From IMG/VR virus record IMGVR_UViG_3300033153_014157: a stretch of DNA of 64,000 nucleotides. One strand, 5' to 3'. Position numbers and translations under genes: made by a program. A model generated the notes under the pieces. That model worked only from the letters and a program-made list of their open reading frames with translations, was not told the DNA's origin and searched no databases. The first letter of the stretch is position 1; each line of letters begins with the position of its first letter. Shown one piece after another: positions 1,979 through 56,158 of this stretch. This stretch comes from an uncultured virus (IMG/VR IMGVR_UViG_3300033153_014157) (lineage: Duplodnaviria > Heunggongvirae > Uroviricota > Caudoviricetes).

Positions 1979-3550
1979 TCACGAGATGAACCTTAGCTGC
2001 ATTTTCTTTTTGAAGTCGTCGTGCTCAATGACGCCTATCGAATTTATTGGAAGCAGGAATTTATTAAAAAAGAACGCTTCATAATGGCGACACAATGTCG
2101 TAAATTTAAGGTTAGATTTTAAATCTCTGACCGTGCAGCCGCATTTTTTTGAAAGTGATGACGGCGTGCCTTGCACGAACTCAGTAAAGTCTGCTTTCCC
2201 CAACAATTCAATCATCAAGTCATTTATTGCGCCAGAATCAATGCCACCTACATGCCTTATATTTTTACGCATGAACTCGCTTACAAATGGTGGGAATGCA
2301 TTTATGAATAATAACATGACTTTTATCAAGTATAACACACATTTATGCCGTTTATACTCTTCTGTATTTGATGGCTCTTCGCCACTTGTTATTATTATAT
2401 CCTTTATGCTCATGTTGTGAAAAATATTTCCGACTTTCATTTTCCGTAGGTCATCGCCACTTGAAAGAAAATACGAGTTTAACAATCCAATGAATGCTAA
2501 CGGCATCAACGACAGCTTTTTCTTTTTTTGTGCCAAGTACTTCGATTCCCCAATAAGTGACAGTTTGGATAAAGAAATGTTCGTGGACAAGTTTGTCATG
2601 AAAAGGTTTAGTAGCAAATTCAACCCGAAATGAAAAACATAACATCCCTTTAAAACATCGTTAGAGCTAACCACTTTTACAAGGTCATCACTGAATATAG
2701 AACGCATCGAATCATTAGGTCTTGAAAATGCGTGGTCACGTAATTCATGTTTTATATATGTTTCAACATCACTCGTGCCAGTAATCCAATATTGGATGCC
2801 TTTTATCAACTCGAAATGTCGTGCCAAGATATTTATTGAAGGAATTCGCTCTATATCTATTATCCACGAGTTTTTATCATTAATTACAGTAAACACGTCA
2901 GCAATTGCATCGAGGCACTCGGCACACCACCTAGATAAATTCGATTCTTTCAAGGCATCTGGAATGGTGCCTCCGCGCTCTGAAGAGCTCAAAGATCTTG
3001 GCACGGAAATTAAACTGTCCAAAAACAATTCTTCACGAATCGTTTTATGTTTCACGAATAACTCTCTAAACATTCCGTATGGAAATCCAATCACTTGTGG
3101 TGGAATGTTTAGCACCTTCTTAACGTGTTTTTTAACGGCTAACACTCTCTCAGCCGTCACAAGTATTGTAGCTGTAAATGACCGCGCCGTTAAAGCGTCT
3201 ATCACGAAATCAGGTTCTAGAACCAATGTATTGTTGTATATCAAGTGTCTATATACATCACTGACATTTTCATCCAAATACGTGCTTGGCAACGGCGTGC
3301 CATTCACCCGTGCCGGCATCACGTGAAATAGTATCTCTTGATTCGTGGTGACGATTTTCTCATCGTTTTCACGGATCATCACGACCTTTTCAAGTTCGTT
3401 CCCTTTTTCATTAATTAACATGCGACCATCATATTTTATACCAGATCTTGCGAGCTCTCTAAACAATATTAATAATTCTGGCTCGATCGACACGCCAGAA
3501 ATGCTATTTTTTCTATCATTTTTACGAAAAACCATCAATGCAATCAACAC
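1979..3550 (-). CDS. Paralog of 3560..5092 with degenerate (MPN-minus-like) N-terminal domain
   Basis: Shares GxYVFHFxLNL, GxDxxxxKxG and YxAFFFNxxLLPINS with the neighbour; FHVMP replaces FHTHS. Confidence 0.65.
   Translation of the reverse strand: MLIALMVFRKNDRKNSISGVSIEPELLILFRELARSGIKYDGRMLINEKGNELEKVVMIRENDEKIVTTNQEILFHVMPARVNGTPLPSTYLDENVSDVYRHLIYNNTLVLEPDFVIDALTARSFTATILVTAERVLAVKKHVKKVLNIPPQVIGFPYGMFRELFVKHKTIREELFLDSLISVPRSLSSSERGGTIPDALKESNLSRWCAECLDAIADVFTVINDKNSWIIDIERIPSINILARHFELIKGIQYWITGTSDVETYIKHELRDHAFSRPNDSMRSIFSDDLVKVVSSNDVLKGCYVFHFGLNLLLNLFMTNLSTNISLSKLSLIGESKYLAQKKKKLSLMPLAFIGLLNSYFLSSGDDLRKMKVGNIFHNMSIKDIIITSGEEPSNTEEYKRHKCVLYLIKVMLLFINAFPPFVSEFMRKNIRHVGGIDSGAINDLMIELLGKADFTEFVQGTPSSLSKKCGCTVRDLKSNLKFTTLCRHYEAFFFNKFLLPINSIGVIEHDDFKKKMQLRFIS
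2660..2671 (+). repeat. Dispersed motif GTTAGAGCTAAC (copy 1, full 12-mer)
   Basis: Exact match read from sequence; antisense in gene, encodes VSSN. Confidence 0.9.
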
Positions 3551-3559
3551 CTGCGCGCG

Positions 3560-6256: not shown

Positions 6257-6326
6257 TGTTAAATTACGTGGAAGTCCTGATTATTATTTAGGAACAAAAA
6301 TCTAATAAAAATGACTATTAATAATT

Positions 6327-6864: not shown

Positions 6865-7791
6865 TCATAATAATGGCTTTGATCTACCTTTTTTGATATT
6901 CGCGGGAACGTACGGGACGTTCTTTCGTGGCACCTTTTTTGATTTTTTCTTTTTGCCCTTCTTTTTCTTTTTTCTTTTTGCCGCAGCCTTTTTTGCCTTT
7001 TTTATTTTCTCCATTTTTTCTTGACGCTTTTTCTCGATTTCCTGCATCACTTTCATTATTTTCTCTATTTCTATTATTATCGTGTCTTCGTCTAATGGAG
7101 TAAGCAATCCGTTATTTATCATCCGTTCAACATATTGCGTTATTATGAAAAACGAGTATCCCGTTTCCTTGCTGACGAACGATATCAATTCGGTCGTGAA
7201 ACCAAACCGCACTTTGAAACGCGCGTATTTGAGCACCGACCTAAATATCTTCACGGGGTCTTCTTTTTCTGGTGGAGGACGTAGCTCTAATGTTGTTTGT
7301 TTCTTGGCACGCACGCGTTCATTTAATAACATGTCAAACTCATACGTGAAAAATCTCGGCTTTATCATCACGTCTATATTTTCCGAACGCAAGTAGAAAT
7401 CTTCATTTTTAATTAACGAGTTATAAAAACAATTTATTAGTCGGTCTCCAACGATCCCTGCCCTTGTTAGTTCCATCCACTCGTCGTGTGTTATGCCCAA
7501 TGCTTCCTCTATCAGTTCTCTCGTCAGGTCTTTTTTGAACATTGGTGTCTTTGTTTTGATTAATATCGGATGTTTCCACGTTATGTTGTCCTTTTTTGAG
7601 GTTTCTACTACGACCTGCTTGCTGTTTAATGGATAGTTTTTAAACGTGATGAATCGTTTTATCAAACCGATTAATGCACGGCTCTCCAGCCTTGAGAACA
7701 CGTGCTTGTACGCGTGCCCTTCTTTATCACTGCACTCAAGAAGAAATCCAGATGCGATCCGTATCATTTTCACGCTATCCAATTTTTTCAC
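6865..7791 (-). CDS. Hypothetical protein with possible winged helix and Lys-rich C-terminal tail
   Basis: 308 aa ORF; KKAKKAAAKRKKKKKGKKKKSKK tail. Confidence 0.65.
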   Translation of the reverse strand: MKKLDSVKMIRIASGFLLECSDKEGHAYKHVFSRLESRALIGLIKRFITFKNYPLNSKQVVVETSKKDNITWKHPILIKTKTPMFKKDLTRELIEEALGITHDEWMELTRAGIVGDRLINCFYNSLIKNEDFYLRSENIDVMIKPRFFTYEFDMLLNERVRAKKQTTLELRPPPEKEDPVKIFRSVLKYARFKVRFGFTTELISFVSKETGYSFFIITQYVERMINNGLLTPLDEDTIIIEIEKIMKVMQEIEKKRQEKMEKIKKAKKAAAKRKKKKKGKKKKSKKVPRKNVPYVPANIKKGRSKPLL

Positions 7792-10747: not shown

Positions 10748-12223
10748 TTAAACAAGCACGTGCTGAATGCGCTCTAAATATTTTAATAAATCTTTTTTCG
10801 TGTTTTTGATTTCGCCCGCAATGACCGCGTCTTCTAGCATTTTTTTTGCCTTGCCTATCACTCGCCCGTATTTTGAGTTCCACGCTTTAGTGACATTTGG
10901 TGGCGGAAAACCTAAATATTCAACCAGCTCGTTTCCAGTTATTACAAGCTTTAATTTTTCCAATTGTTTGCGTTCGCTCTCATCAAAATTCTTGATTTCG
11001 TTGATCACCTTGTCAAAAAGCCTTGTCTTTCCGAGCACGTGGCATTCTCTATCTGCTACCGTTAGCTCTAATAGCCTATCTAATTCGCTACCAGCATCTC
11101 GTATTAGCCTTCTAATTCCCTTTTGACCAATGTTCACGCTAATCCGCATGTGCATTTTAATCAATAATGACACGCGTTTTATCACGTTGTTTGAATATTT
11201 CAGGCGCAACATTTCCGCAATAGGAAGCTCCGATTCTTCGTGCTTCGGCGACCTTATTTCTCCGTTTTCATCGATTATCGTGTGGTCAAGCTTGCCGTAA
11301 TCATGTAATAATGCAGCAAGCCTAGTTATCAGGTCTTTGCTCTTTATTCTTGATAGAACCGCTATGGAATGCCACCCAACAGTGTCGTCGTGGTACTTTT
11401 GATTTTGCCTCACCTTAAACAGCGCGTCTAACGTTGGGAGAACGAATTGTAATATGTTCAGCTCCTTCATTAACTTGAAATACTTGTCAGGGTTATCTTG
11501 TAATAAGATCTTGTTTAATTCGTCCCTTATTCGCTCGACTGGTATCAGCCTGAATTTTTTTAGGCGCGCCTCCAAGCGTGGAAATGTTATTTCTGCATCG
11601 TTAAAATACTGCATCATTGCTGTTCTAGTTTCTGGCTCAATCCCAAATTCATATTTACTTGCAAACCTAACGGCACGGAATATCCGCGTCGGGTCATCAT
11701 AAAACGTCACCAATGGTTCTAAAGGTGTCCTTATTAGACCCGCCTTTAAGTCGCTCACTCCATTGCCAGTTATGTCTATTATTCGCTTGCTGGAACTCGT
11801 GTTAACGCATACCGCTAGCGTGTTAATCGTGAAATCACGGCGTAGAAGGTCGTCTTCTAGCGTCCCCCTAGTCACGTTAGGCTTGAACGACTCCGGGTCG
11901 TAAGATTCTTTTCTTGAACGGACTAACTCCACGTCCACGTCAAGCACTTTAAACTGCACAGTGCCGTATCGCGGAAATCTAGATATTTTTGATATTGAAT
12001 AGCCAAGTTTTTCCCTAATATAGCCCACGAGCTTTTCCGTGAATTCGAACACGTCCCCCTTAGTTATCACTAGATCTACATCCTTACTCTCGCGCCTTAA
12101 TAACAGATCTCTAACATACCCACCAACTACATAGGTTGGCACGTTGACCTGATCTGCAAGCTCGCCTATAGCATTTAGTATTATTCGTTCACGCGCGTGT
12201 AAGATGTCGTTATTATTTACCAA
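10748..12223 (-). CDS. cca: Class II (bacterial-type) CCA-adding tRNA nucleotidyltransferase with HD domain
   Basis: VVGGYVRD, DVDL, EDDLLRRDFTIN, DDPTRIFRAVRFA, ERIRDEL, LLHDYGK. Confidence 0.85.
   Translation of the reverse strand: MVNNNDILHARERIILNAIGELADQVNVPTYVVGGYVRDLLLRRESKDVDLVITKGDVFEFTEKLVGYIREKLGYSISKISRFPRYGTVQFKVLDVDVELVRSRKESYDPESFKPNVTRGTLEDDLLRRDFTINTLAVCVNTSSSKRIIDITGNGVSDLKAGLIRTPLEPLVTFYDDPTRIFRAVRFASKYEFGIEPETRTAMMQYFNDAEITFPRLEARLKKFRLIPVERIRDELNKILLQDNPDKYFKLMKELNILQFVLPTLDALFKVRQNQKYHDDTVGWHSIAVLSRIKSKDLITRLAALLHDYGKLDHTIIDENGEIRSPKHEESELPIAEMLRLKYSNNVIKRVSLLIKMHMRISVNIGQKGIRRLIRDAGSELDRLLELTVADRECHVLGKTRLFDKVINEIKNFDESERKQLEKLKLVITGNELVEYLGFPPPNVTKAWNSKYGRVIGKAKKMLEDAVIAGEIKNTKKDLLKYLERIQHVLV
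11061..11071 (-). repeat. Dispersed motif TTAGAGCTAAC (copy 2)
   Basis: gttagctctaa on + strand; encodes LELT. Confidence 0.9.
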
Positions 12224-12332: not shown

Positions 12333-12677
12333 GTGTTTTACATGAAGGTCCATAAAAACGATCTCGGTTTGTTAAATTTTTTCGAGCCGTTAGAACACAA
12401 AGTCGGCTCGCTACTACCTAATCACGAAGTCGAGACGTGCATAAGCACTAAAAAAATTACCGTGACGCTCGCAATACGCGGCAACTTTCTTCAGAAAACA
12501 CGATCTGTAGCAAAGGACTTGGGTTTTGAAATTGCTGACGATGGAATAATGATTTCCGACAGTGGTAATGACCCTCAGAAAATACGCAAGAAACTCGCAA
12601 AAAAAGTCGAGGAGTTCATGAATAGCACGTTCAAGCGGAGCGGTAGTGATAGGCGCGTTCGATTAGCAAAGTCTTAA
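12333..12677 (+). CDS. Hypothetical protein
   Basis: 114 aa ORF divergent from cca. Confidence 0.55.
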   Translation: MFYMKVHKNDLGLLNFFEPLEHKVGSLLPNHEVETCISTKKITVTLAIRGNFLQKTRSVAKDLGFEIADDGIMISDSGNDPQKIRKKLAKKVEEFMNSTFKRSGSDRRVRLAKS

Positions 12678-12693: not shown

Positions 12694-12740
12694 GTTAGCT
12701 CTATCTTACTTGTTGAAAATTATAACGTATTAGAGCTAAC
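12694..12740. repeat. Inverted pair of the dispersed motif (10 bp perfect arms, 27 nt spacer) between convergent genes; includes copy 3 at 12730..12740
   Basis: gttagctcta 12694..12703 and tagagctaac 12731..12740. Confidence 0.85.
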
Positions 12741-17188: not shown

Positions 17189-18930
17189 ATCCGTATCCAG
17201 TCGGGTATAATGATTCTGTTGATGCCTCCATATATATCGAAACATTTGCACTGTTAATGTATTCGAACGGCACGCCTACACCATACATGAATTACACGAC
17301 AGATAATTGGAGCACGTTTCACGTGGTTTCGCTACACGACACGTTCATATCTAGTGGAAGGTATCACGGCACGATACCCGCGCAGCCGATCTACACGTTC
17401 GTCAGGTATTATTATAATGCGACGAGTTACAACGGCACGCACTACTTCACGTCAGTGTCTGACGAGTATAACTACACGGTAATTGATACTTATCCTCCAG
17501 ACATCATTCACGACAACAGCTCGACCAACTCGTTTATAGGAGTGTCCAATCCGCATCCATATCCGAGCGTGACATCATTGACCATGAACGTTAGAGCTAA
17601 CGACGAGGTTACCGATGTCGGTCAGGGCGATGTCAAGCTACATTATGACATCAATGGCAGTTTCGCCGTTTCTAACATGACGCGCAACGGCACGTCTGAC
17701 CATTTCTATCACACCATTAATTATAATCCCTCGACCGTGCTTTCTACAAATGGTGGCTACATCAAGTATTTCATCGAGGCGCGTGATAAGAACAGCACGC
17801 CTAACATTGCATATTCGGGGAACTATACCATTCGAATTGACGACCAACATCCTTCCGTATCCGACATTTACATCGACCCTAACAGGAAGGTGCTGCCGAC
17901 CGATCCAGACACGACAGAATATTCCGATTTGGTTGACGTGTATTGTAACATTACTGACGACAACGCGCTCGGCTCGCTATATTTGGTATGGTCTGCAACG
18001 AGTTTTGCAACTAACAGTTCGCACGTTGCGCTAACGCACGTTTCAGGAAACCGATATAAAACCGCAACTAAGATTCCAAAGCAGAATTACGGCACGACCA
18101 TTCATTATGCCATTCACGTCGAAGATAGTTATGGTAACGCTCAGGAAGTCGTTGGTAGTTACTATGTCAGTGATTTTACCGCACCCGACATTTTGAGCAT
18201 CGCGCAAGAACCGCTTGCTGTCGGGATCGACACGCCAGTCACGGTCACAGTCAATGTTTACGAGAGTTCTTTGGGATCGGGAATCGCGGCTGTGTATCTA
18301 CAATACAGGTACACTAATTCAAGCGGACACTATTCCGATGTTTTAACGGTATTAATGGACTCCGTTAATGGAAACACGTATTCTGGAATAATCGAGGGAT
18401 TACCACTCGGCACGCACGTTCAATACCTCACAATAGTGATTGATAGTGCCGGAAATGCAGATATATCCGACCTTTACGAGTATGACGTGATAGACATCGG
18501 AACGTATACCGATTGGGCTGTATTCTTGCTTTATGTCATCATTGGCGCGACGCCTCTTGCTGGACCGATAGTTGCGGAAACAGTGTACTCGTCAAAATCG
18601 CTATCTGGTGCTGCTGGTAAAAAGACGAAGATGCAAAAAATGATCCGGTATGCCGGGTGGGGAATACTTGCTGCCATACCAATAGGTATAGGAATGTTGA
18701 TGGGGCTCGGCATCACTCCAATAAAACTAAGCGGGCTATCACTGTCTGAGTTCCTAGCAGAACCGGTATTGGCAACACAATTCTCTGGAATGATTTCAAT
18801 AATGATAATAATAGCAATCGCGCTGACATCTGTAGGAATCGCATTACTGTTAAAGAATGTCAAGAAAAACGCATCTACAAAACGCATCGTTCTGAAGCCG
18901 TTCAAGAGAAGCACTCGGCACGGGCGCTAA
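17092..18930 (+). CDS. Surface glycoprotein, C-terminal part: repeated Ig-like domains and 3 TM helices
   Basis: Repeated D..PP.I / TIP.Q..GT.V.Y.I...D..GN units; C-terminal TM segments; no own signal peptide. Confidence 0.7.
   Translation: MGYRALWSEPQLFGTEVAHQCHRVPLFSYSQLDPYPVGYNDSVDASIYIETFALLMYSNGTPTPYMNYTTDNWSTFHVVSLHDTFISSGRYHGTIPAQPIYTFVRYYYNATSYNGTHYFTSVSDEYNYTVIDTYPPDIIHDNSSTNSFIGVSNPHPYPSVTSLTMNVRANDEVTDVGQGDVKLHYDINGSFAVSNMTRNGTSDHFYHTINYNPSTVLSTNGGYIKYFIEARDKNSTPNIAYSGNYTIRIDDQHPSVSDIYIDPNRKVLPTDPDTTEYSDLVDVYCNITDDNALGSLYLVWSATSFATNSSHVALTHVSGNRYKTATKIPKQNYGTTIHYAIHVEDSYGNAQEVVGSYYVSDFTAPDILSIAQEPLAVGIDTPVTVTVNVYESSLGSGIAAVYLQYRYTNSSGHYSDVLTVLMDSVNGNTYSGIIEGLPLGTHVQYLTIVIDSAGNADISDLYEYDVIDIGTYTDWAVFLLYVIIGATPLAGPIVAETVYSSKSLSGAAGKKTKMQKMIRYAGWGILAAIPIGIGMLMGLGITPIKLSGLSLSEFLAEPVLATQFSGMISIMIIIAIALTSVGIALLLKNVKKNASTKRIVLKPFKRSTRHGR
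17590..17601 (+). repeat. Dispersed motif GTTAGAGCTAAC (copy 4, full 12-mer)
   Basis: Exact match; encodes VRAN. Confidence 0.9.
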
Positions 18931-23324: not shown

Positions 23325-23400
23325 TTTTATTACCGCGCCTGATGATCGTGATTAATTTTTAGTGTTAATGTTATTAATGGTTATCGTCAATTATTTATTC

Positions 23401-24369: not shown

Positions 24370-26430
24370 TCATTCCAATGATGCGTATAGGTTCGTTCTC
24401 GGCTTATATATCAGGCTGTTAATGACGGCTGTTTCCAATAATCTCTCAACTTCTATTTTATCATTCATGTTTAGCGTCTTTTCAGCTTGTTCTATTATTT
24501 CTTCTAGCGTGATTCCAGTACAACCCTTTTGATTTTCCAAAGTCTTTATCAAGTCTATCAGGTCGTGAATTTTATTCATCTTTGATTTCGGGCGACCGAG
24601 CTCTACTATATCTATGTCAATTTCGCCCGTTTCCTTGTCCACGCCGACTTGCATCAGGCTTTCGCGAAGTATTTCTATGACCTCTAATGCGTCTTTTTTC
24701 GTGATCGTGTCACGTAATTCAACTCTTGCACGTGCTTCCGCAAGCCTTATTATGCCTTCCAAGAACCTATACGTTATCGTCACTGGCGTGTCATTACCAT
24801 CTAACAACGCGGACTTGTTTCGCATGTCGAGGTAAAACTTCTTTATCGTATCACTTGCTTCCTTGCTTAGTTTTGGTCTGTAATGCAACTTTGCATAATG
24901 AATGTACTTCATCATATATTCAGGAGATATGCTAAGTCCTGTTTCCTCTTCGTGTTGTTTTAGTACGTGCATGGTTTTTTCTTCGTCATCTTTTTGGTTT
25001 GGGATGTCACGTAATATGAATATCAAGTCAAACCGCGATAACAATGTCGGCGTTATTTTCTTCAGGTTTTCAGTGATCGAACGCATCGTGTCATACCTCC
25101 CGTATGTAGGGTTTGCGCTTGCTATAATAGTGGTTCTTGCATTTAACGTGGCATTTATACCCGCTTTATGAACGCTTATTGATTGTTGTTCCATTGCTTC
25201 ATGAATTGCAGATGCATCAACGTCCCTCATCTGCGTCAATTCGTCGATACAGACCAACCCAAGATCGCCTATCACCAATGCGCCTGCCTCTAACATTGGT
25301 TCTCCAGTCGTCTTGTCATAAACTACGGTTGCCGTCAAACCAGCCGCGGTATTACCCTTTCCAGTGGTATATACACCTCTAGGTGATATGCTTGATATGA
25401 ACTTCAGCATCTGTGACTTACCTGTCCCAGGGTCACCTATTAGCAGGACGTGTATGTTACCGCGCAACGTGTTGCCGACCTTCTCTTTCGTCACGCCGCC
25501 AAATAACGACAGCAATAACGCCTTTTTTATCGTGTCATGCCCGTGTATGTTAGGCGCGATATTATTGATCAATAGCCTGAATGCGTCTTTTTGTTTAGAA
25601 AAGGTTATTATTTCTTCTTCTTCCTCTATTGTTAGCTCTAATTCTTCTATATCCTGTTCAAATTTCTCGACGCCGCGCACGTCCATGTAGTTAGTGAATG
25701 TCACGAGTTTTCCGCTATGACCGCGATCCTGAACATTCCGCATCACGCCAGTTATGACCACGTGGTCGCCTGGCTTGACTCGGTCTACCAAGTCAAATTT
25801 CAAGATGGCATCCACGTATCTTGGTATCTGCCTTGCAGGCACTTCTGATGGCATCTCTTGAATGCGTATTTTTTGCCAGTCACGATACTTTGATTGCTCT
25901 TTAAGAAACTTGAACGATTTCTTATTATTACATTCTTCTAATGGGCACTCGCTCGGTTTTACCTGATGAAAATCATCCTGCAACATGACGATCTGATTCC
26001 CGCACCGACCGCACTCATAAACACCGACATACAATCCCGACTTTACCATTGTTGCCCTTGTCACGATGCCCTCTATGGCTATTAGTTGCCCTAGATTTTT
26101 AGCCCGTATGTGCCTAAGCCGCACGATTTCATCTAGCCCTACCACGCGCACGAAAAAATCGTCAAATTTTTTCGCATATTCTTCATCTAGTTCTTCAACC
26201 GTGACCTTTAGACCATCATCCATTGCAGAAAACATGTCATCGGGATACGTTATCATCATCTTTGCCATTTCAGGATCATATTTTTTTACGTCATAGAACT
26301 TGATCGTCATGCTGTATTCATTCCGCTCCATCATTTCCTGAATCTTTTCGAAATACAGCCTTATGTTATTATCGTCCTTAAATGACTTCATGAACTTACA
26401 AGCACTCTCAATTGCATCTTGCATCATCAC
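24370..26430 (-). CDS. mcm: Archaeal MCM replicative helicase
   Basis: Zn finger CGRC/CPLEEC, GDPGTGKS, AAGLTA, IDE, HEAMEQQSISVHKAG, SRFDL, C-terminal winged helix; no intein. Confidence 0.97.
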   Translation of the reverse strand: MMMQDAIESACKFMKSFKDDNNIRLYFEKIQEMMERNEYSMTIKFYDVKKYDPEMAKMMITYPDDMFSAMDDGLKVTVEELDEEYAKKFDDFFVRVVGLDEIVRLRHIRAKNLGQLIAIEGIVTRATMVKSGLYVGVYECGRCGNQIVMLQDDFHQVKPSECPLEECNNKKSFKFLKEQSKYRDWQKIRIQEMPSEVPARQIPRYVDAILKFDLVDRVKPGDHVVITGVMRNVQDRGHSGKLVTFTNYMDVRGVEKFEQDIEELELTIEEEEEIITFSKQKDAFRLLINNIAPNIHGHDTIKKALLLSLFGGVTKEKVGNTLRGNIHVLLIGDPGTGKSQMLKFISSISPRGVYTTGKGNTAAGLTATVVYDKTTGEPMLEAGALVIGDLGLVCIDELTQMRDVDASAIHEAMEQQSISVHKAGINATLNARTTIIASANPTYGRYDTMRSITENLKKITPTLLSRFDLIFILRDIPNQKDDEEKTMHVLKQHEEETGLSISPEYMMKYIHYAKLHYRPKLSKEASDTIKKFYLDMRNKSALLDGNDTPVTITYRFLEGIIRLAEARARVELRDTITKKDALEVIEILRESLMQVGVDKETGEIDIDIVELGRPKSKMNKIHDLIDLIKTLENQKGCTGITLEEIIEQAEKTLNMNDKIEVERLLETAVINSLIYKPRTNLYASLE
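25631..25641 (-). repeat. Dispersed motif TTAGAGCTAAC (copy 5)
   Basis: gttagctctaa; encodes LELT in MCM. Confidence 0.9.
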
Positions 26431-33829: not shown

Positions 33830-33900
33830 TTCACGTCATCCTTTTAAATGAATACACATAAATACACATTAAGGTGTATAAAAAACATTCTGGTGATTTC

Positions 33901-34185
33901 ATGGTAAAAAAGAAGCGGTTTAACATCACGCTCAGCAATAAGCACGCAAGAATAATTGAAAAAATCATCGAGCAGAAAGATGGCATTAATACTAAAAGTG
34001 GCGCTATAGAATGGGCATTAAAAAAATCGTTAATATTCATGTTATTGACAGAAGCAGAAGTGTATCACGCATTGAAAATGACGCTACCAGCCGAAGACTT
34101 AAACCACTTATTGCCCAGAAACACAGCCGGTAACGATTTTGAGTGTATTGACATCAATGATTTTTTTCATTCCGATGGTGATTAG
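33901..34185 (+). CDS. Ribbon-helix-helix DNA-binding protein
   Basis: KRFNITLS..HARIIE.......KSGAIEWAL; GGTGA upstream of ATG 33901. Confidence 0.6.
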   Translation: MVKKKRFNITLSNKHARIIEKIIEQKDGINTKSGAIEWALKKSLIFMLLTEAEVYHALKMTLPAEDLNHLLPRNTAGNDFECIDINDFFHSDGD

Positions 34186-36677: not shown

Positions 36678-36689
36678 GTTAGAGCTAAC
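36678..36689 (+). repeat. Dispersed motif GTTAGAGCTAAC (copy 7, full 12-mer, intergenic)
   Basis: Begins immediately after the GTPase stop codon, between convergent genes. Confidence 0.9.
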
Positions 36690-44455: not shown

Positions 44456-45121
44456 TCAATCAAACACGTATAAATAAACGCTAATTCCAAACTGTAATAA
44501 TTCTAACACGAATAAATAGTTCGCGTAGATCGTTCCGTATAAAACCGCAATCGATATCACGTCTGGAATAAATGCCTTCAAGTAGATATAATCAACGTTA
44601 TAATACATTAATGCCGTGATGATCAAGTATCCAACGAATGCCATCATGACCCACGGAACGAAGCTGAAATAATAAACGATTCTTATTACTGTCCATGCCA
44701 GATGATCCCACATTAACCACTTCGTGTTTTTAACATATCGTATGAATTTAGTAGAGAATATGTCCAAAAATGACAATAACGTGAAAAAAACGACTGATGG
44801 CACGTCAAACAATATTACCAAGAATGTAACAATGACTTTCGTGACTATGATTAGAGCTATCACGATATTCTTATTATTTCTCAAGTTTATCTTAAAGCTA
44901 TATTTATTCAAATCTCTTTGTAATGACAACTTTATTCCAAAGCCGCGGAACGCGAGTGCTATCAATATGAAAATGCCGAATAGTGATAAATACATCAATA
45001 GCACGTTAAAAAAACTAACGAAGTTTAGATTTATGTAAGTTAGCATCATTGCTAATGTCAATATCAAGACTGATATTATTTCTGGTGTATGTGATGACCT
45101 TCTTGAAACCTTTTTTATCAT
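44456..45121 (-). CDS. Polytopic membrane protein
   Basis: Six or more hydrophobic segments. Confidence 0.65.
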   Translation of the reverse strand: MIKKVSRRSSHTPEIISVLILTLAMMLTYINLNFVSFFNVLLMYLSLFGIFILIALAFRGFGIKLSLQRDLNKYSFKINLRNNKNIVIALIIVTKVIVTFLVILFDVPSVVFFTLLSFLDIFSTKFIRYVKNTKWLMWDHLAWTVIRIVYYFSFVPWVMMAFVGYLIITALMYYNVDYIYLKAFIPDVISIAVLYGTIYANYLFVLELLQFGISVYLYVFD

Positions 45122-45465: not shown

Positions 45466-45858
45466 TTAATAACCTAAGATTAAAACGTGCGACATCGCAA
45501 ATCCTAACGTTGTCTGCGCGACTGCCGCTGCCCATCCAGATGCTAACCCTAGGCACGCGTATAACACGACCGACAATATTATCTTGTCATAAACTAATGA
45601 TCTATCAATGGCTGAAAACACGAGCAAGAGAATCACGGTCGTGAATAACAACACGACATCCGATACTAACAATCCAAACATCACCACTTGTGGTAGCATT
45701 AGCAATACCGCAACTACTTCTAGCATCTGACCAGAAACAAATCCCAATAACACGCTTGCCACTATTACCAGCAGCTTAAACATTTTGGAATTCCCTTGCG
45801 CCTTTTCAACATGTTTTATTCCCGTTCTACTAGATAATGACACGTCCCGTTCACCCAA
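45466..45858 (-). CDS. Membrane protein (3-4 TM)
   Basis: Hydrophobic helices. Confidence 0.6.
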   Translation of the reverse strand: MGERDVSLSSRTGIKHVEKAQGNSKMFKLLVIVASVLLGFVSGQMLEVVAVLLMLPQVVMFGLLVSDVVLLFTTVILLLVFSAIDRSLVYDKIILSVVLYACLGLASGWAAAVAQTTLGFAMSHVLILGY

Positions 45859-46426
45859 ACCTGATAACGCTTAATAACGTTATTATTATCAACAATATTG
45901 TCAATAGCATGTAAAAAATGTTAAATAATATTATGGCGAAGGCATTGCTCATTCCTTCGGAATACAATACTAATGCAAACACGCCAAGCCACGAGAACAA
46001 AATTGCGAACACGAATAACACTATTATCACGAGTGTCCTGCTTGATAAAACAAAGCTAACACGTAATACCATGTCGTCCCGATTTGCAATTTTCATCGAG
46101 CGCGTTTGGACGCGCCTTACTATCGGGTCGCGACCGCGCACTGCGTGAAATAACGTCCACGCAAATGCCGACAACAATATGAAGCCCTCCAATAGCGCAA
46201 TGCCGATCATCACCAATAACAGCTCGATAGACGATGATAGCGGGACGAAGACCATGATTCTCGGCATGTTTGATAGCGCATTCGACATTATTAATACCGA
46301 TATTGATATTAGTAGTGCTATTATCGTCACGGTTATTATCGTCACGATTTCCCATTTACGTTTAGAGCTAACAGAATTCTTGTTAATATTTACCCTGCTT
46401 GCCAATGATGAATGTGATGGCGACAT
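45851..46426 (-). CDS. Membrane protein (4 TM)
   Basis: Hydrophobic helices. Confidence 0.6.
   Translation of the reverse strand: MSPSHSSLASRVNINKNSVSSKRKWEIVTIITVTIIALLISISVLIMSNALSNMPRIMVFVPLSSSIELLLVMIGIALLEGFILLSAFAWTLFHAVRGRDPIVRRVQTRSMKIANRDDMVLRVSFVLSSRTLVIIVLFVFAILFSWLGVFALVLYSEGMSNAFAIILFNIFYMLLTILLIIITLLSVIRFG
46362..46372 (+). repeat. Dispersed motif TTAGAGCTAAC (copy 8)
   Basis: Exact 11-mer; antisense, encodes VSSK. Confidence 0.9.
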
Positions 46427-49817: not shown

Positions 49818-50267
49818 ATGAAGGATATAGATAGGATCATAAAAGAGGCATTTTCAAAAGGGCGCACTGGTAATGATGCCAGTGTTCGCGCGATAATATT
49901 AGAGAGTGATTCGGACAAATTCGTGTCAAAGGGAATCGTGTCTGGAATGAAGGGCGCAAAAAAGATCCAAGTATTCATAGATACGGGAGCTACTGACAGC
50001 CTAATTGACACGAGTTTAGCTGGTGAGATAGGCGCGTGTACAACGGGTAACGTGAAGCGGATATATGGCGTTACCTCTGACTACATGGTATTGACAGAAG
50101 TGGAAATCCATCTTCGACTTATAAAGAATAAAGGCGAAGTGTCTGGAGAAGTTCGCCTGTCAATGCTTGACGGCGTTTCAAAAATCACTGGTGGCTCGCC
50201 ATTGTTATTAGGCATGGATTTTCTAACATTCGAGCGCGGTAGAAAGGCAAAGCTGATGATAGAGTGA
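49818..50267 (+). CDS. Retropepsin-like (clan AA) aspartic protease
   Basis: VFIDTGATDSLI ... LLLGMDFL. Confidence 0.85.
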   Translation: MKDIDRIIKEAFSKGRTGNDASVRAIILESDSDKFVSKGIVSGMKGAKKIQVFIDTGATDSLIDTSLAGEIGACTTGNVKRIYGVTSDYMVLTEVEIHLRLIKNKGEVSGEVRLSMLDGVSKITGGSPLLLGMDFLTFERGRKAKLMIE

Positions 50268-50875
50268 GCTTAGAGTTCAGACTAAGGAAAAAAAGGCGCG
50301 TGTTGTCAGCAATAAACGCGATCATTTTCGTCGTGACATTCACGCTACTTGAGGGCGCGACGTTGTTGGGCGCGATGCTCGGGTTGTTAGCTCTAAATTT
50401 AATTTTGTTTGTCGGTTATTCTACATTATTCGTATTAGTATTGGCGTGCTTGATCGTGATAGCCATGTCAAAAAAAGTAGTTTTCATGCACGACCGAAGA
50501 AAAATCACTGATGACGAGTTAGACCTGTTGAGATTTAAGGTGGCGTTATCAGCATTACTCGTGTTGATAATGTTTTCAATTGTATTGTTATCACTGTCAT
50601 TGTTTAGATTGCCGGCGACGGCATCAATCAATCCATTGCTGTTTTTCTCGTGCGTGTTGGTCGTGATATTGGTGATGGCATCGTCAATCGCGTGCGTGGT
50701 GAAGTTAATAATTCATTTTAAAATACGGCTCTGTTTATTAGACATCGCGATTGCGTGTTCATATTTCGTGTTAATGACTCTTTCAATTGTATTGTTGTCG
50801 ATCATTGTTCCACCATTATTCATGGTCGTGCCGTTTATAATATCTGTCGTGTCAGTCTTCGTTTTCGTGTATTAA
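50264..50875 (+). CDS. Polytopic membrane protein (about 6 TM)
   Basis: Hydrophobic; overlaps the protease stop. Confidence 0.6.
   Translation: MSLEFRLRKKRRVLSAINAIIFVVTFTLLEGATLLGAMLGLLALNLILFVGYSTLFVLVLACLIVIAMSKKVVFMHDRRKITDDELDLLRFKVALSALLVLIMFSIVLLSLSLFRLPATASINPLLFFSCVLVVILVMASSIACVVKLIIHFKIRLCLLDIAIACSYFVLMTLSIVLLSIIVPPLFMVVPFIISVVSVFVFVY
50386..50396 (-). repeat. Dispersed motif TTAGAGCTAAC (copy 9)
   Basis: gttagctctaa; encodes LALN. Confidence 0.9.
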
Positions 50876-51125: not shown

Positions 51126-52877
51126 TCAGAAATCTGTTTTAATTCCTAGTAACATCCTTCTCTTCTCATTATACAATTCGATGTCGTGTAACGAATTTAG
51201 GTTAAGATCTATAATGATTTCGTTATTTGTCGCCTTTTTTCTCGTGATCAACCCAGCCCTCTCCAATAATACTGATGCCTTACTGATTGATGTCTTATCT
51301 TTGTATCCGAATGCCTGTTGAACCTCTTTGTATGAAACGGGGGATTCTTTTTCTACTAAATGCATAATTATCTTCTCGATCAAGTTCTTGCTAGGCGATC
51401 CATTTTTCACGTTAGCGATGGCTTCCCTGACAGCCGGGTGCTTGTAGAAGTCAATACGTTTCTTGAATTCAACCATTTCTAATGGTTTGGATTTGTGTTG
51501 TTTCAGTTCTTTTATCTCATTTTTCAACTTCTCTATTTCTTCGTTGTTATCGTCAATAATGTCTTCATCTATTCCAAGGATAGAGTTGATCTTTCTAACA
51601 TGTTTAAGGATTTCTTCTCTATCCTTTCCGAACCTTGACACGTCTTCAAGGCTATTACTCAATTCTTCGATCGCATTATCTCTTTCTACTAGCTGTTCTT
51701 CTAATTTCCTGATCTTTATTTCGCCGTTTCTCACTGCGTTTTTTAATTCCGTGATGTAGCGATCCTTCTGCTGAATTTCAAGCGTTAATTTTTTTATCTT
51801 CATTGAGTCAGCAACAATCACCTTTGGACCGTCCTGTTGAATGACTTTAATGGTACCTATTAGCTCTAAGTCGTGTTTGGCTCTCGATAATTCGTTTTTA
51901 GTATCATCTAAAACTCGGTTTAGGTTTTCTAGCTCGTCTTTTAAAGAATCTCTCTCTTTTTCTAACTCCTTTATTTTGTCAATTTCTTTTCTTTTCTCGT
52001 TTTTTCTTTTTTCTAGATTCTCTTTTAATAACTCGATGATGGAAGCCAGTTCTTCTGTTCTTTTACTCATTAAAGACACTTCACTATTGAATAATGGCGT
52101 GTCTGCAAGGTCGGTCATCTTTGCCTTACGGAATTTGACCTTGTACCCGACATCATTTAATACTAAAAAGAACTCTTGATTTAACTCCCTAATTTCCCGA
52201 TAGTCGATTTCAACTCTTTTCAGAGTATCTTTAATCCTGTCAATATCGTTAGGTATTAGCGATTTTCCGAAGAAACGCATGTTGCACTCGCTAAGCACGT
52301 TTTTATTTATTTTAGCAGTCCTTTGAGTGACCCAGATTTGATGGATGCCGAATTTTCTCCCTTCAGACGCAATCTCGATTGCTATTTCAGACGAATCGGC
52401 TTTGCCATCCTGAGGGGCTATATGTTTACATTCTTCTACAACGAGAAAAATGGGTTTTCTATACCTTGGGGCTGAAACATAAAGTGTTTCCAATATTTCT
52501 TCCGCAAGTAAGGATTTCTGCTTTCTCCTGACTTCACTAAGATCGAATACTAAAATGAGTCCGTCTTTATACACGTGTTCTACTAACTCATAGAACATTG
52601 AATTATCTAGCGGCAAGTCGGCATATTTGCCACCAATAACCAAAACCTTATTAGATATTTCGTTTAATGAGGCATATTCACCTGAGATGTCAATTACTAT
52701 TGACGCAAATCCGATGCGAATCAGTTCTTCCAAGAAGACCTTTGCGGCATTACTTTTCCCGCTACCAGACATTCCTCCAAAAAAGATCCGTATCCCTTCT
52801 CTCTCCAATGATTTTAGGTCGACATGGAAGTCGTCTGATAGGTTGACGATATAATCATGGCTAATTGAAGCTTGCAA
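51126..52877 (-). CDS. HerA/FtsK-superfamily (DUF87-like) ATPase with long coiled coil and C-terminal winged helix
   Basis: GMSGSGKS, IDISGEY, VVEECK, EGRKFG, TQR; heptads; YKEV..AFG....ISKA...LERAGLI. Confidence 0.8.
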   Translation of the reverse strand: MQASISHDYIVNLSDDFHVDLKSLEREGIRIFFGGMSGSGKSNAAKVFLEELIRIGFASIVIDISGEYASLNEISNKVLVIGGKYADLPLDNSMFYELVEHVYKDGLILVFDLSEVRRKQKSLLAEEILETLYVSAPRYRKPIFLVVEECKHIAPQDGKADSSEIAIEIASEGRKFGIHQIWVTQRTAKINKNVLSECNMRFFGKSLIPNDIDRIKDTLKRVEIDYREIRELNQEFFLVLNDVGYKVKFRKAKMTDLADTPLFNSEVSLMSKRTEELASIIELLKENLEKRKNEKRKEIDKIKELEKERDSLKDELENLNRVLDDTKNELSRAKHDLELIGTIKVIQQDGPKVIVADSMKIKKLTLEIQQKDRYITELKNAVRNGEIKIRKLEEQLVERDNAIEELSNSLEDVSRFGKDREEILKHVRKINSILGIDEDIIDDNNEEIEKLKNEIKELKQHKSKPLEMVEFKKRIDFYKHPAVREAIANVKNGSPSKNLIEKIIMHLVEKESPVSYKEVQQAFGYKDKTSISKASVLLERAGLITRKKATNNEIIIDLNLNSLHDIELYNEKRRMLLGIKTDF

Positions 52878-54556: not shown

Positions 54557-54562
54557 GTGATT

Positions 54563-56158
54563 TCATCTCTTTGATAACGCGTAGTATTCAAAAATGCTTG
54601 GGTATTCCTTCATTACTGCCGAGCGTTTCTCAAGAAGAAGTGCGGATGCGTCCCGAATTTTATTGTTAATTATAACTGACAATGGCATCTGTACCTGAAC
54701 GGATAAAAATGGATATATATCTCTAACCACGTATATACGCCATTTAGTCTTGTTCTTGTCATTAAGTTCTCCGCTTTTCTTAAACAAAACAAGTGCGTTG
54801 TCGTCGGCTGAAACTTTAAATAACTTGAAATCGGCATTTAAAAATTCATTAATATATGCGGTTATGGAAAAAGTCAATTCCGGAACGGTAGTGAATTTAA
54901 GCAGGGTGTTAAAGTAAATGTTGATGCCTTCTGTCATTTTTTTTGTGAACGCTCCTTCACGTATCATTGAACGCAATACCAAAGTTGAATAATTGAAAAA
55001 GTTAGATCCATGGCAAAACTCGTCATCATCGTAAGGGCGCGGCACTTCATAAATAACATGTCCCGTGTTATTATCTTTTTTTATAGAAATATAGAATAGA
55101 TATTTATCTTCTGGTTGCTTAGAGATGCGAATCAGTTTGTAGACTAATTCGGCACCACCAGTGATTGACGTGCCAGTGTAATTTTTTATATTTTGGGGAG
55201 TGAAAGAATATGATGGTAAGTACTCGCCGTCATCGGATTTGGCTAATATCCGATCGACAAGCTCGTCTATAACGCTTACTTGCGGGCTACTAATTTCGAA
55301 TGCGCCAGTATTATATTCCAATAGCGGCTTTCCGGTCATGAAACACGTGACCTTTCTATATCCAATGATCAGGTCATCAACGGCATTTTTAATATCAACC
55401 CTTGCACTGCCCGTGATGTCGGATAACACGTTATCAAATAACGGGTTTTCGATAAAGCGTTTTAAAACGGACATGTCTCGAAACACGTTCGATTTGGCAG
55501 GTGGTAGTACTGGTTTTGATAAGAGCCTAATGAGGTGCCTAAAATACGGATGTATTTTCGCTGGCAAGATTGGATGGTAAAAATGATATTTCAATAACGT
55601 TATTACGCCAATATAATGCGTTGAAATAATGTCAATTTCCGAACCAGAAACTTTAATTACAAGTGCCGTGTCGTCAATTAATGCTTGTCTTGCATGTGAA
55701 ATTTCGTCTGCAAGGGCAAAAAGACCGTGACTAAATACGATGTAAACGCTAAACTTGTCACTATCACGATATTCGTGTAGTAATACACGTGCGCCGCTAT
55801 GATAAATAGATTTCATGAATTCGCCGATGGTGCCCGCGAGGCGAAATCTGTAAATGCGCCTCCTTTGGTTACCAATCTTGTCAATATCGTTCAAGTATTG
55901 TTCTATGATCCTTGCGTCATTAAAAGAAAAAACAATTATTGGACCGCGTTTATAACGTCTAATATTCGAGGCTATTCCACTTTTATTGGAATACGTCACG
56001 TTTACATCGAACTTTCTTTTTGACTTGAACAAATAGGATAGTTCTTCATCACAATCAAGCTCCAAATCATCATATTTTTCCACGATCCCGGAAATAAAGT
56101 CACAAATGGCGTTAAAATCGGCACTTGAGCTTGAAAATGATGTTAGCTCTAACTTCAT
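54563..56158 (-). CDS. Hypothetical protein (similar size, possibly family X)
   Basis: 531 aa ORF. Confidence 0.6.
   Translation of the reverse strand: MKLELTSFSSSSADFNAICDFISGIVEKYDDLELDCDEELSYLFKSKRKFDVNVTYSNKSGIASNIRRYKRGPIIVFSFNDARIIEQYLNDIDKIGNQRRRIYRFRLAGTIGEFMKSIYHSGARVLLHEYRDSDKFSVYIVFSHGLFALADEISHARQALIDDTALVIKVSGSEIDIISTHYIGVITLLKYHFYHPILPAKIHPYFRHLIRLLSKPVLPPAKSNVFRDMSVLKRFIENPLFDNVLSDITGSARVDIKNAVDDLIIGYRKVTCFMTGKPLLEYNTGAFEISSPQVSVIDELVDRILAKSDDGEYLPSYSFTPQNIKNYTGTSITGGAELVYKLIRISKQPEDKYLFYISIKKDNNTGHVIYEVPRPYDDDEFCHGSNFFNYSTLVLRSMIREGAFTKKMTEGINIYFNTLLKFTTVPELTFSITAYINEFLNADFKLFKVSADDNALVLFKKSGELNDKNKTKWRIYVVRDIYPFLSVQVQMPLSVIINNKIRDASALLLEKRSAVMKEYPSIFEYYALSKR
56142..56153 (-). 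repeat. Dispersed motif GTTAGAGCTAAC (copy 10, full 12-mer)
   Basis: gttagctctaac; encodes LELT near the gene start. Confidence 0.9.

Follow-up and report, generated by a model that had tools for sequence, protein, structure and literature searches.

The window, the whole 64-kb stretch of DNA analysed here, looks like part of a mobile element or virus, at least 124 kb long, that is related to Loki/Helarchaeota. It encodes the recombination and replication proteins RadA, Hjc, a Hel308-like helicase, MCM and a DHH/RecJ-like protein, together with a 602-aa protein carrying a Cas4-like nuclease domain (E 1e-10 in PHROG, 4e-5 in NCBIfam), and replication of the element seems to rely on an MCM and a RadA of its own. 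The RadA shares 60% identity with that of Loki/Helarchaeota; MCM is at most 45–50% identical to any match in three collections and, in one of them, equally far from all archaea (≤45%). The window further encodes an Rnl1 ligase, a class II CCA enzyme and three DNA methylases, GGCC sites are absent (0 observed versus 78.6 ± 8 expected) and eukaryote-like genes specify a Ras-type GTPase and a Vps36/E2-like protein. There is a weak signal of a UDG-like glycosylase, and a Pfam family is missing for 39 of the 60 ORFs. We found no tRNA genes or Rfam matches in the 64-kb window, no rRNA, ribosomal-protein or metabolic genes, and no capsid, portal or integrase (the window being one half of the contig); its Pfam and NCBIfam matches include no competence family. 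Dispersed among these genes is an 11-bp word, TTAGAGCTAAC, with the following copies and near copies:

2661..2671, plus strand: exact copy, full 12-mer from 2660; antisense in ORF 1979-3550 (minus), read VSSN
7280..7290, minus strand: two-mismatch copy with the core TAGAGCTA (TTAGAGCTA) retained; sense in ORF 6865-7791 (minus)
11061..11071, minus strand: exact copy; sense, L385-E-L-T of a class II CCA/poly(A)-polymerase-type enzyme (10748-12223, minus)
12694..12704, minus strand: one-mismatch copy (first base); intergenic, in a convergent gap of 108 bp where it and the 12730 copy form an inverted pair
12730..12740, plus strand: exact copy; intergenic, at the convergent junction of 12333-12677 (plus) and 12786-14252 (minus)
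17591..17601, plus strand: exact copy, full 12-mer from 17590; sense in ORF 17092-18930 (plus), read VRAN
25631..25641, minus strand: exact copy; sense, L264-E-L-T of MCM (24370-26430, minus), in the linker that joins its OB and P-loop domains
33121..33131, plus strand: exact copy; sense, L744-E-L-T of the Hel308-like helicase (30892-33294, plus), where its C-terminal HhH domain begins
36679..36689, plus strand: exact copy, full 12-mer from 36678; 2 nt past the stop codon of the Ras-family GTPase, at a convergent junction
44851..44861, plus strand: one-mismatch copy (position 10); antisense in ORF 44456-45121 (minus)
46362..46372, plus strand: exact copy; antisense in ORF 45851-46426 (minus), read VSSK
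50386..50396, minus strand: exact copy; antisense in ORF 50264-50875 (plus), read LALN
51859..51869, minus strand: one-mismatch copy (last base); sense, within the HerA-like ATPase gene
56142..56152, minus strand: exact copy, full 12-mer to 56153; sense, codons 3-6 (LELT) of ORF 54563-56158 (minus), if the listed ATG is the true start
59136..59146, plus strand: one-mismatch copy (last base); antisense in the VWA/CoxE-like gene 57113-59230 (minus)

Genes for two candidate readers of the word lie in the same window:

51126..52877, minus strand: 583-aa ATPase, putative reader, with its architecture taken from a structure model
33874..34185, plus strand: 103-aa protein, a second and weak candidate, with an RHH-like pattern seen by eye in the sequence

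An earlier note on this DNA had reported the ten exact copies, and its coordinates and strands all proved correct, as did the four copies (4/10) extended to the full 12-mer GTTAGAGCTAAC, the four near matches (12694, minus; 44851, plus; 51859, minus; 59136, plus) and the peptide readings (LELT four times, VSSN, VSSK, VRAN and LALN). The ORF list likewise places both intergenic exact copies (12730 and 36679) at convergent gene junctions. TTAGAGCTAAC thus occurs about once per 6.4 kb, a frequency far beyond chance. In 100 dinucleotide shuffles the expectation was 0.03 copies and none reached 10. Under the Markov null that the note had proposed, the ten observed copies compare with an expectation of between 0.02 (analytic order-3 model) and 0.3, simulations giving 0.1 at order 3 and 0.3 at order 5. 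The TTAGAGCTAAC word family is the sole strong outlier among the 8- to 11-mers of the window, whose top 11-mer scores 50.4, compared with 8.7–13.2 in four other Asgard regions (32–80 kb) put through the same scan. The word is also sharply defined: the ten exact copies are accompanied by four with one mismatch, all at outer positions (a ratio of about 2.5:1), and two-mismatch copies are at background level. The base A often comes next, and no flanking similarity was found between the copies.

Six copies lie on the plus strand and four on the minus strand, in the order + - + + - + + + - -, and we saw no strand polarity or switch point among these ten copies over the 64 kb. The GC skew of the window is monotonic. 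Spacing is more even than random by two statistics picked after the data had been seen and calculated from ten points only (20,000 simulations): the coefficient of variation of the gaps (0.44, P = 0.008) and the largest gap (9,683 bp, P = 0.0045). To place the word relative to possible hosts, we counted it in 400 Asgard genomes from the phylum of a Helarchaeota MAG. It was not enriched in any of them, with 0–10 copies per genome (maximum 10 per 4.9 Mb), as for the reversed-word control; copies in the richest genomes were scattered, and the sampled host-type chromosomes carry about one per Mb or less. The word belongs to the element and not to any sampled Asgard chromosome.

Selection on TTAGAGCTAAC acts at the level of DNA, not protein, as the earlier note had argued. 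When codons were shuffled synonymously (1,000 shuffles), a control that the note had also put forward, coding copies dropped from 8 to about 0.07, so that the enrichment holds; the total averaged 2.07, including the two intergenic copies left untouched. All four LELT peptides in the window are spelled TTA-GAG-CTA-ACN, each with a codon-usage probability of 0.0135, and both VSS[KN] peptides and the single LAL[NTSI] peptide are likewise spelled with the word. Alignments agree with this and also bear on origin. The MCM copy (25631) lines up, without any indel, with (V/I/L)-E-(I)-T in 12 MCM homologues, and the 2661 copy aligns ungapped to the tandem paralogue (3560-5092) of its ORF. Ungapped alignment in both alignable genes indicates that the word arose by substitution, not insertion. 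New copies would arise by point substitution at sites whose encoded protein can accommodate L-E-L-T, V-S-S-K/N, x-R-A-N or L-A-L-x.

The arrangement of bases within the site limits what might bind it. The earlier note had described a pseudo-palindrome, and inverted arms are indeed present (4-bp TTAG/CTAA arms in 10/10 copies, 5-bp arms in the four full 12-mers), but the symmetry does not extend to the site as a whole. GTTAGNNCTAAC was found only with the centre AG/CT, and the reverse complement of TTAGAGCTAAC differs from it at the centre and the ends, so the word is not a perfect palindrome. Of the 12 sites with TTAGAGCTAA, 10 have the 3′ C and 4 have the 5′ G that would mirror it; a perfect match confined to the right side occurs at six sites, and one confined to the left side at none (exact McNemar P 0.03, hand-computed). 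The 11 bp of TTAGAGCTAAC form an oriented, asymmetric word whose likeness to a palindrome is superficial.

Given this consistent asymmetry, the note's proposal of a dimeric protein on a palindrome is not supported. We consider it unlikely that a symmetric dimer, such as the RHH-like protein, binds a 12-bp pseudo-palindrome with a centromere or nucleoid-organising role like that of parS, matS or Noc/SlmA sites. Organiser sites (matS/MatP, SBS/SlmA, NBS/Noc, parS/ParB) do share a duplex-read, (pseudo)palindromic 12–14-bp format with the TTAGAGCTAAC site and often lie inside genes, and local genes specify a small RHH-like protein and one with a coiled coil and a winged helix. Those sites are, however, symmetric, degenerate, regional and bound by dimers of known families, whereas TTAGAGCTAAC is asymmetric, exact and evenly spread, and lacks the two-fold symmetry of matS, SBS and NBS. 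Two winged helices would be a tight fit on arms whose centres lie only 7 bp from each other, and the RHH-like protein has no Pfam or PDB match. The parS analogy fits poorly since the copies spread evenly, with no cluster beside a partition operon within the window, and since no ParB, MatP, SlmA or TetR-type family was found among the 60 ORFs scanned at E ≤ 0.001 (24 of them again at E ≤ 0.5).

Orientation and asymmetry are also features of Chi, the signal read by RecBCD/AddAB, and a Chi-like role would have one strand of the word read by a helicase-nuclease that switches from degradation to RadA loading, protecting ends and promoting recombination in recombination-dependent replication. The density of about one per 6 kb is that of Chi in E. 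coli (one per 5–6 kb), exact Chi words are similarly tolerated in coding sequence, and the element encodes its own recombination kit, including the Cas4-like protein; with copies spread evenly in the two orientations, either end of any break would be protected. We nonetheless judge this reading quite unlikely. No RecBCD, AddAB or AdnAB family was found among the 60 ORFs, the copies show no clear orientation bias or visible polarity switch, and we know of no Chi in archaea and of no Chi word as long as 11 bp. Nor is TTAGAGCTAAC mimicry of a host Chi, since the 400 Asgard genomes are not enriched in it.

If the window were chromosomal DNA of an unsampled Asgard-like lineage, the word could be genome-wide there, as an uptake-sequence-like or architecture word, and its description as a self label of the element would fail. 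The profile is that of an uptake sequence (2.5:1 exact excess, both strands, all open frames, even spacing, one inverted pair at a convergent junction) and RadA is of the ordinary Loki/Hel type. Against this stand 64 kb with none of the tRNA, rRNA, ribosomal-protein or metabolic genes sought, an MCM equidistant from all archaea, three methylases with total GGCC avoidance, phage-type tRNA-repair genes and a word enriched in no sampled Asgard genome; competence is not known in Asgard archaea. A chromosomal origin is accordingly doubtful, and we give it a small probability.

Drive by an enzyme, with no binding function, is very unlikely. A methylase, nicking or repair enzyme would bias repair towards its own site, as has been proposed for cyanobacterial highly iterated palindromes; the window encodes three DNA methylases, the word contains AGCT, its exactness is typical of enzyme recognition and the UDG-like signal, weak as it is, would fit. 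Eleven specified asymmetric bases nevertheless far exceed usual methylase sites, and no Vsr-type family was found in the scanned ORFs. AGCT itself is not enriched (159 observed versus 141 expected), so the excess is confined to the full word.

Dispersed operators through which a repressor silences transcription across the element are more improbable still. The stoperators of Cluster A mycobacteriophages offer a precedent, being asymmetric ~13-bp sites present in tens of copies along a single mobile genome and served by one element-encoded reader, but they are intergenic and co-oriented with transcription. TTAGAGCTAAC is neither: 8/10 copies are coding, in a window with a coding share of 92%, and the intergenic share (2/10 versus 7.7% non-coding) shows no excess (binomial P about 0.18). 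Only 2 of 13 convergent junctions bear a copy, and relative to transcription six copies are sense or downstream-sense, three antisense and one intergenic. Chance, an artefact of assembly and the trace of a 12-bp insertion or excision, the last of which would be frame-neutral, are effectively refuted by the shuffles, the ORFs that remain open, the ungapped alignments in 2/2 testable genes and the dissimilar flanks. An operator, an RNA signal, an insertion scar and a host-wide signal were each rejected as the identity of TTAGAGCTAAC.

From the statistics of this one 64-kb window we infer that TTAGAGCTAAC probably lets a protein recognise the element's own DNA. The form of this that we favour, at slightly less than even confidence, is that the word is the duplex recognition site of an element-encoded protein, for self-recognition across the element. 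A sequence-specific protein of this kind would find its own DNA anywhere along the length through a word present at least once per 10 kb on either strand. At that density any long fragment of the element carries the word, and its rarity in the sampled host-type chromosomes would make it usable as a self label. Binding could serve self-recognition by a DNA motor (packaging, translocation or transfer), or compaction or segregation.

The most concrete candidate reader is the winged helix of the 583-aa ATPase. The earlier note's HerA-coiled-coil-winged-helix architecture is borne out by the structure model (pLDDT 72), in which a domain of the HerA/STIV2-B204 packaging-NTPase type (residues 10-250) is followed by a coiled coil (275-460) and an ArsR/MarR-like winged helix (497-558). 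The ATPase domain matches STIV2 B204 (TMt 0.77–0.80) and HerA (E 4e-12), and for the C-terminal domain the matches are winged helices of ArsR/MarR/HlyU (E about 2e-3, TM 0.58–0.68). Homologues occur in integrated elements of Asgard MAGs, beside an integrase in one; the homologue P0124 is 63% identical. Distant relatives (31–36% identity) keep the putative recognition-helix core, with an invariant D-K-T..S-K in three aligned sequences, and their contigs carry no copies of TTAGAGCTAAC in 65.8, 9.7, 8.8 and 9.0 kb. This counts against the helix as the specific reader, unless those contigs are not its substrate. We know of no packaging ATPase of the HerA/B204 class that reads dispersed words.

A bolder version of self-recognition, which we think rather unlikely as it stands, is that a giant Asgard element or virus labels itself every ~6 kb and that a domain on its own packaging or translocation ATPase reads the word, so that any fragment of the element, but next to no host DNA, would be picked out for encapsidation or cell-to-cell transfer. 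If a packaging-type ATPase is the reader, the system would show how a large archaeal element separates its own from host DNA. The 11-bp duplex is a precise and cheap handle, usable as bait for the reader protein, and as a sequence tag the word could spot related elements in metagenomes and separate them from host DNA.

Genome-wide recognition words, among them uptake sequences, Chi, KOPS and organiser sites, are rare cases of a short sequence selected across a whole replicon, and all the well-studied ones are, to our knowledge, bacterial and chromosomal. HIP1 of cyanobacteria resembles TTAGAGCTAAC as a short exact word in huge excess in coding and non-coding DNA, with an unsettled function and a possible methylase link; it differs as a perfect 8-bp palindrome that is chromosome-wide, whereas TTAGAGCTAAC is an asymmetric 11-bp word seen so far in one element.

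KOPS, SRS and the 8-bp repeats of Streptomyces are dispersed short exact duplex words read by FtsK (through its gamma domain), SpoIIIE and TraB, respectively, each through a winged helix on an FtsK/HerA-superfamily ATPase, and the 583-aa ATPase of the window, with its C-terminal winged helix, belongs to that superfamily too. KOPS and SRS are 8-mers with strong strand polarity, whereas TTAGAGCTAAC is 11 bp long and its order of orientations shows no polarity converging on a terminus. The winged helix of the 583-aa ATPase resembles ArsR/MarR regulators, and the viral packaging NTPase STIV2 B204, the closest in size, has no winged helix.

A parallel in distribution is offered by the uptake sequences DUS (Neisseria) and USS (Pasteurellaceae), exact 9- to 12-mers in vast excess on both strands, mostly in genes and in any open frame, with exact copies outnumbering one-mismatch copies by about 2 to 1, even spacing and occasional inverted pairs at convergent gene ends. 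TTAGAGCTAAC shares both orientations, all open frames, exact excess and even spacing. In competent bacteria, DUS and USS are spread over the entire chromosome, roughly one in every kb, and their reader is a competence pilin or receptor, whereas TTAGAGCTAAC occurs at 1 per 6.4 kb on an apparent mobile element, with no chromosome-wide excess in the 400 Asgard genomes, which stay at the level of the reversed control. The literature that we searched contained no archaeal genome-wide recognition word and mentioned TTAGAGCTAAC only in guide-RNA scaffolds. Under the bolder version, in which the element's own ATPase reads its self label, archaea would gain their first uptake-sequence- or KOPS-like system, and no earlier one would have been carried by a mobile element rather than a chromosome.

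The exact 11-mer TTAGAGCTAAC occurs ten times in the 64-kb window, and a direct count reproduced every position and strand listed in the earlier note (2661+, 11061-, 12730+, 17591+, 25631-, 33121+, 36679+, 46362+, 50386- and 56142-). Dinucleotide-preserving shuffles gave an expectation of 0.03 copies, with none of 100 shuffles yielding 10, and order-3 and order-5 Markov simulations gave 0.1 and 0.3, respectively; the analytic order-3 model gave 0.02. Four copies extend to the 12-mer GTTAGAGCTAAC. The four near matches previously proposed are genuine, each with a single mismatch (12694-, 44851+, 51859- and 59136+), and the TTAGAGCTA core is retained in a fifth relative, at 7280-. Two-mismatch neighbours, at ~16 compared with 13–20 expected once 12-mer self-overlaps are removed, represent background. 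The flanks of the ten copies are dissimilar, except for an A directly 3' of the word in six of them. Scanning all 8- to 11-mers, we found this word family to be the sole strong outlier in the window, where the top 11-mer score was 50.4, compared with 8.7–13.2 in four other Asgard regions of 32–80 kb.

Other repeated words were recorded in the same window. A second dispersed exact word, the 14-mer GATCGACACGCCAG, is present three times, always on the plus strand (3485-3498, 18225-18238 and 45211-45224). Two of these copies lengthen to one identical 19-mer. The copies lie in unrelated genes on both coding strands; no further copies lie within two mismatches, a range in which shuffles expect 0.29. 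TGATAAAA and TGATAAAAA occur 34 and 17 times, respectively, and about 9 of the 34 TGATAAAA sites lie within 130 bp, on either side, of the start of a same-strand ORF; TGATAAAA may form part of a promoter element.

We next asked at which level the word is maintained, permuting synonymous codons within each gene 1,000 times while leaving proteins and gene codon usage unchanged. The enrichment persisted under this codon-preserving null, the ten copies falling to a mean of 2.07; with the two intergenic copies left untouched, the eight coding copies compare with ~0.07 expected, and shuffling codon order gave the same outcome. Peptide spelling points the same way. All four LELT occurrences among the window proteins are spelled TTA-GAG-CTA-ACN, a spelling with a probability of 0.0135 per LELT from codon usage, and the word is likewise used in both VSS[KN] peptides and the single LAL[NTSI] peptide. 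Only one of six xRAN peptides is spelled with it, showing that the amino acids alone do not dictate its use. Together, the shuffles and the spelling test bear out the proposal that selection acts on the DNA rather than the protein. The two reading frames that the word does not use are both frames in which it holds a stop codon, consistent with the standard code and with a word that is placed wherever the encoded protein can accommodate it.

As a 12-bp unit would keep the frame, we also looked for signs of insertion. When MCM is aligned with 12 homologues of other archaea, the word-encoded L264-E-L-T falls opposite (V/I/L)-E-(I)-T without a gap, and V-S-S-N in ORF 1979-3550 aligns ungapped to the tandem paralogue 3560-5092, ruling out an insertion scar in both testable cases. 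On these alignments, the word appears to have arisen via substitution rather than insertion. Two further copies fall outside this test: that in the Hel308-like helicase belongs to an additional domain at the C terminus, and the CCA enzyme has hardly any homologues among the five Asgard genomes tried.

The word is indifferent to gene structure. Eight of the ten copies fall in coding sequence, which makes up 92% of the window, indicating no pull to intergenic DNA; relative to genes, six exact copies are sense or just downstream-sense, three are antisense and one is intergenic. Both intergenic copies do lie at convergent junctions, as had been stated, and such junctions carry the word in only 2 of 13 cases. 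The imperfect copy at 12694 and the perfect one at 12730 are inverted relative to each other and lie 24 nt apart, a pattern with no match in the viral contig collection. Spacing is more even than random in 20,000 simulations, both by gap variation (CV 0.44, P = 0.008) and by the largest gap including the ends (9,683 bp, P = 0.0045), each a post hoc statistic on 10 points.

The earlier note had read the word as a pseudo-palindrome bound by a dimeric protein, with segregating or organising the element among its possible roles. The inverted arms of the 12-mer are in keeping with that reading, whereas the anatomy of the sites disfavours it. GTTAGNNCTAAC is found solely around a central AG (CT when read on the opposite strand), and of the 12 sites with TTAGAGCTAA, 10 carry the 3' C and just 4 the mirror 5' G. 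A perfect match on the right side alone is seen at six sites, and on the left side alone at none (exact McNemar P 0.03, by hand). Changes in the one-mismatch variants are confined to outer positions (1, 10, 11 and 11), and TAGAGCTA is unchanged in all 15 members of the family. The word is no true palindrome, and we consider a symmetric-dimer centromere or organiser unlikely; the 4+4 inverted arms could be incidental or else stem from the way in which one protomer reads the site.

The genes of the window are archaeal and Asgard-flavoured, including MCM, a Hel308-like helicase, RadA, Hjc, a Ras-family GTPase, a Vps36/EAP30 and E2-like protein and DnaJ; 39 of 60 ORFs lack a Pfam family. MCM reaches at best 45% identity among 185,579 species genomes, 36% among viral contigs and 50% among metagenome contigs. 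RadA is 54–62% identical to Lokiarchaeota and Helarchaeota RadA, with the nearest relative in a 5.8-billion-protein set at 60%, and is itself recorded on a 123,783-bp contig. Three DNA methylases are encoded, as are a T4-Rnl1-type RNA ligase (847-1947 +) and a class II CCA/poly(A)-polymerase-type enzyme (10748-12223 -) with a weak match in only one of five Asgard genomes tried. This ligase and CCA enzyme, the latter of bacterial/eukaryotic type, look like a phage-style tRNA-repair kit; neither tRNA genes nor Rfam families were found within the 64 kb. GGCC is absent from the whole window (78.6 ± 8 sites in shuffles, ~95 by the maximal-order model), and several palindromes are strongly depleted relative to expectation: AGCGCT (0 compared with 6), CATATG (0/6.7), CTCGAG (1/9.9), GGCGCC (2/10.6) and GTTAAC (4/17). 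CCAGG and CCTGG number 7–8 compared with ~27 expected, and CACA and TGTG stand at 0.36–0.39 of expectation. The absence of GGCC and the palindrome depletion are the signature of a restriction-evading genome, and this signature could help to identify the host.

The orphan ORFs, methylases, Rnl1 and CCA enzymes, lack of tRNA genes, divergent MCM and absence of GGCC argue that the window is non-chromosomal. It is probably part of a mobile element or virus of at least 124 kb with a Loki/Helarchaeota-like host; the half of the contig covered here showed no capsid, portal or integrase. A Chi-like signal serving the element's own recombination kit is a somewhat weaker candidate than the symmetric dimer. 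RadA and Hjc are present, which favours it, and the word has no orientation bias (six plus, four minus, no switch point), which counts against it.

Further features of the element were noted. Eukaryote-signature-type genes encode the E2-like (UQ_con) and EAP30/Vps36 fusion (23362-24357 +), the Ras-family small GTPase (36135-36677 +), the DnaJ-domain protein (33311-33829 -) and a retropepsin-like aspartyl protease (49818-50267 +). Two pairs of diverged orphan paralogues, one in tandem at 1979-5092 (-; 523 and 510 aa, 25% identical) and one at 53015-54556 and 59264-60988 (-; 513 and 574 aa, paired solely via a 55-nt repeat of 78% identity), have no homologues in Pfam, PHROGs, NCBIfam or PADLOC; a homologue search with ORF 54563-56158 also returned nothing. 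The coding strand changes 26 times across the 64 kb, dividing the genes into 27 same-strand runs, many consisting of one gene, a mosaic unlike typical prokaryotic operons. The genes at 56270-63552 (-) include orphans together with those for an N6/N4 methylase, a 705-aa protein resembling VWA/CoxE and a MadB-like AAA ATPase (NCBIfam E 1e-50, under the curated cut-off), and may form a methylation-associated defence-like module. A known defence system at ~51-63.5 kb was rejected, since the region yielded no PADLOC system and nothing beyond orphan type II methylases and weak matches of HerA and MadB-like type.

Outside the window, at least one copy of the word was found in 256 of 400 genomes from the phylum of a Helarchaeota MAG, with a maximum of 10 per genome. 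These counts equal those of a reversed-word control, copies in the five richest genomes are dispersed over separate contigs, and density reaches at most ~2 per Mb, compared with 156 per Mb in the window. The word is thus not host-wide among these genomes. We consider it improbable that it runs chromosome-wide through an unsampled lineage. The word was absent from 80 MCM-homologue loci on species-genome contigs. CRISPR-repeat likeness was rejected because counts in Asgard genomes are far below a repeat array, as was an RNA-level role, given no Rfam or tRNA match and the word's occurrence in both orientations relative to genes.

The evidence base for the word is one 64-kb window. The word is exact and asymmetric, lies on both strands irrespective of gene structure, covers the element evenly, is confined to it in the material searched and arose by substitution. 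Together these features suggest a duplex recognition site deployed element-wide, and point away from gene regulation, RNA function, scars and host-signal mimicry. We tentatively favour, at a little under an even chance, a self-recognition site for an element-encoded reader with a genome-wide task, be it packaging or translocation, segregation, or compaction; such a protein would recognise the word as duplex all along the element. Enzymatic drive without binding is more doubtful than the chromosome-wide explanation. Stoperator-like silencing is very improbable, as the features listed above lead away from gene regulation. Chance or artefact is negligible, given the shuffles and simulations.

For the favoured self-recognition site, we examined candidate readers. 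The 583-aa ATPase (51126-52877 -) was folded together with five relatives (mean pLDDT 72), and all three parts of the HerA-coiled-coil-wHTH architecture ascribed to it are present in the predicted structure. Residues 10-250 form a P-loop domain with best matches to HerA translocases (E 4e-12) and fullest target coverage for the packaging NTPase B204 of Sulfolobus turreted icosahedral virus 2 (TMt 0.77–0.80, rmsd 3.3–3.6 Å). Residues 275-460 form a coiled coil, and residues 497-558 a winged helix (pLDDT 77 when folded alone) matching ArsR, MarR and HlyU-type DNA-binding domains (E ~2e-3, TM 0.58–0.68). KOPS, SRS and the Streptomyces TraB repeats are all read by an FtsK/HerA-superfamily motor joined to a winged helix that recognises sequence, and by this analogy the ATPase is the most concrete candidate reader. 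The other candidate, a 103-aa protein at 33874-34185, is RHH-like by eye, with no family or PDB match.

The ATPase family is rare: a search of 5.8 billion proteins gave four relatives at E <= 1e-20. The closest, P0124, is 63% identical and encoded on a 31.9-kb contig; P0125 (38%) comes from a 154-kb contig and was not found in the viral contig collection. Full-length members at 34–44% identity are present in 3 of 400 Asgard genomes, and homologues on Asgard contigs include:
G092:C17, 17711-19342, ATPase homologue (locus L196)
G086:C6, 3607-5244, ATPase homologue (locus L194)

One Asgard homologue has a tyrosine integrase and a NikA-like gene as neighbours and borders chromosomal DNA with FtsZ and ribophorin I. 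The family usually lies near an N6/N4 methylase and is likely a marker gene for a class of Asgard mobile elements. Four homologue-bearing contigs (G092:C17, G086:C6, G087:C10 and C176) have only the ATPase homologue and a methylase in common with the window, and contain no copy of the word. The putative recognition-helix core, an invariant D-K-T..S-K, is nevertheless kept in two aligned relatives (31–36% identity) whose contigs lack the word, which counts against the ATPase as reader; within the self-recognition reading, its winged helix is a possible, though not a probable, reader.

No comparable word was found around further ATPase homologues (in genomes G304, G301 and G216). A mild ATAGCTAA excess in G092:C17 (20 compared with 6.3 expected) was dropped as a comparable word, as it resembles I-A-K codon bias. 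Separately, 80 kb of Asgard chromosome surrounding an ATPase homologue (G304:C1:1132000-1212000, loci L208-L211) shows a moderate local excess of GCTGAGAAA, with 16 copies compared with 1.7 expected.

Among the papers listed in literature searches, the word appeared only in those on guide-RNA scaffolds and on unrelated subjects, its 9-mer core being present in published guide-RNA scaffolds. These searches gave no archaeal uptake-like or packaging-word system, and the searched passages of Asgard mobile-element and virome papers contain no such motif; a preprint on large archaeal ECEs, in the passages available, concerns Methanoperedens and Bathyarchaeota elements. In tests of membership, the word could be placed in none of the known families of dispersed words. 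Uptake sequences come closest in statistical behaviour, and winged-helix-guided FtsK/HerA motors come closest in encoded machinery.
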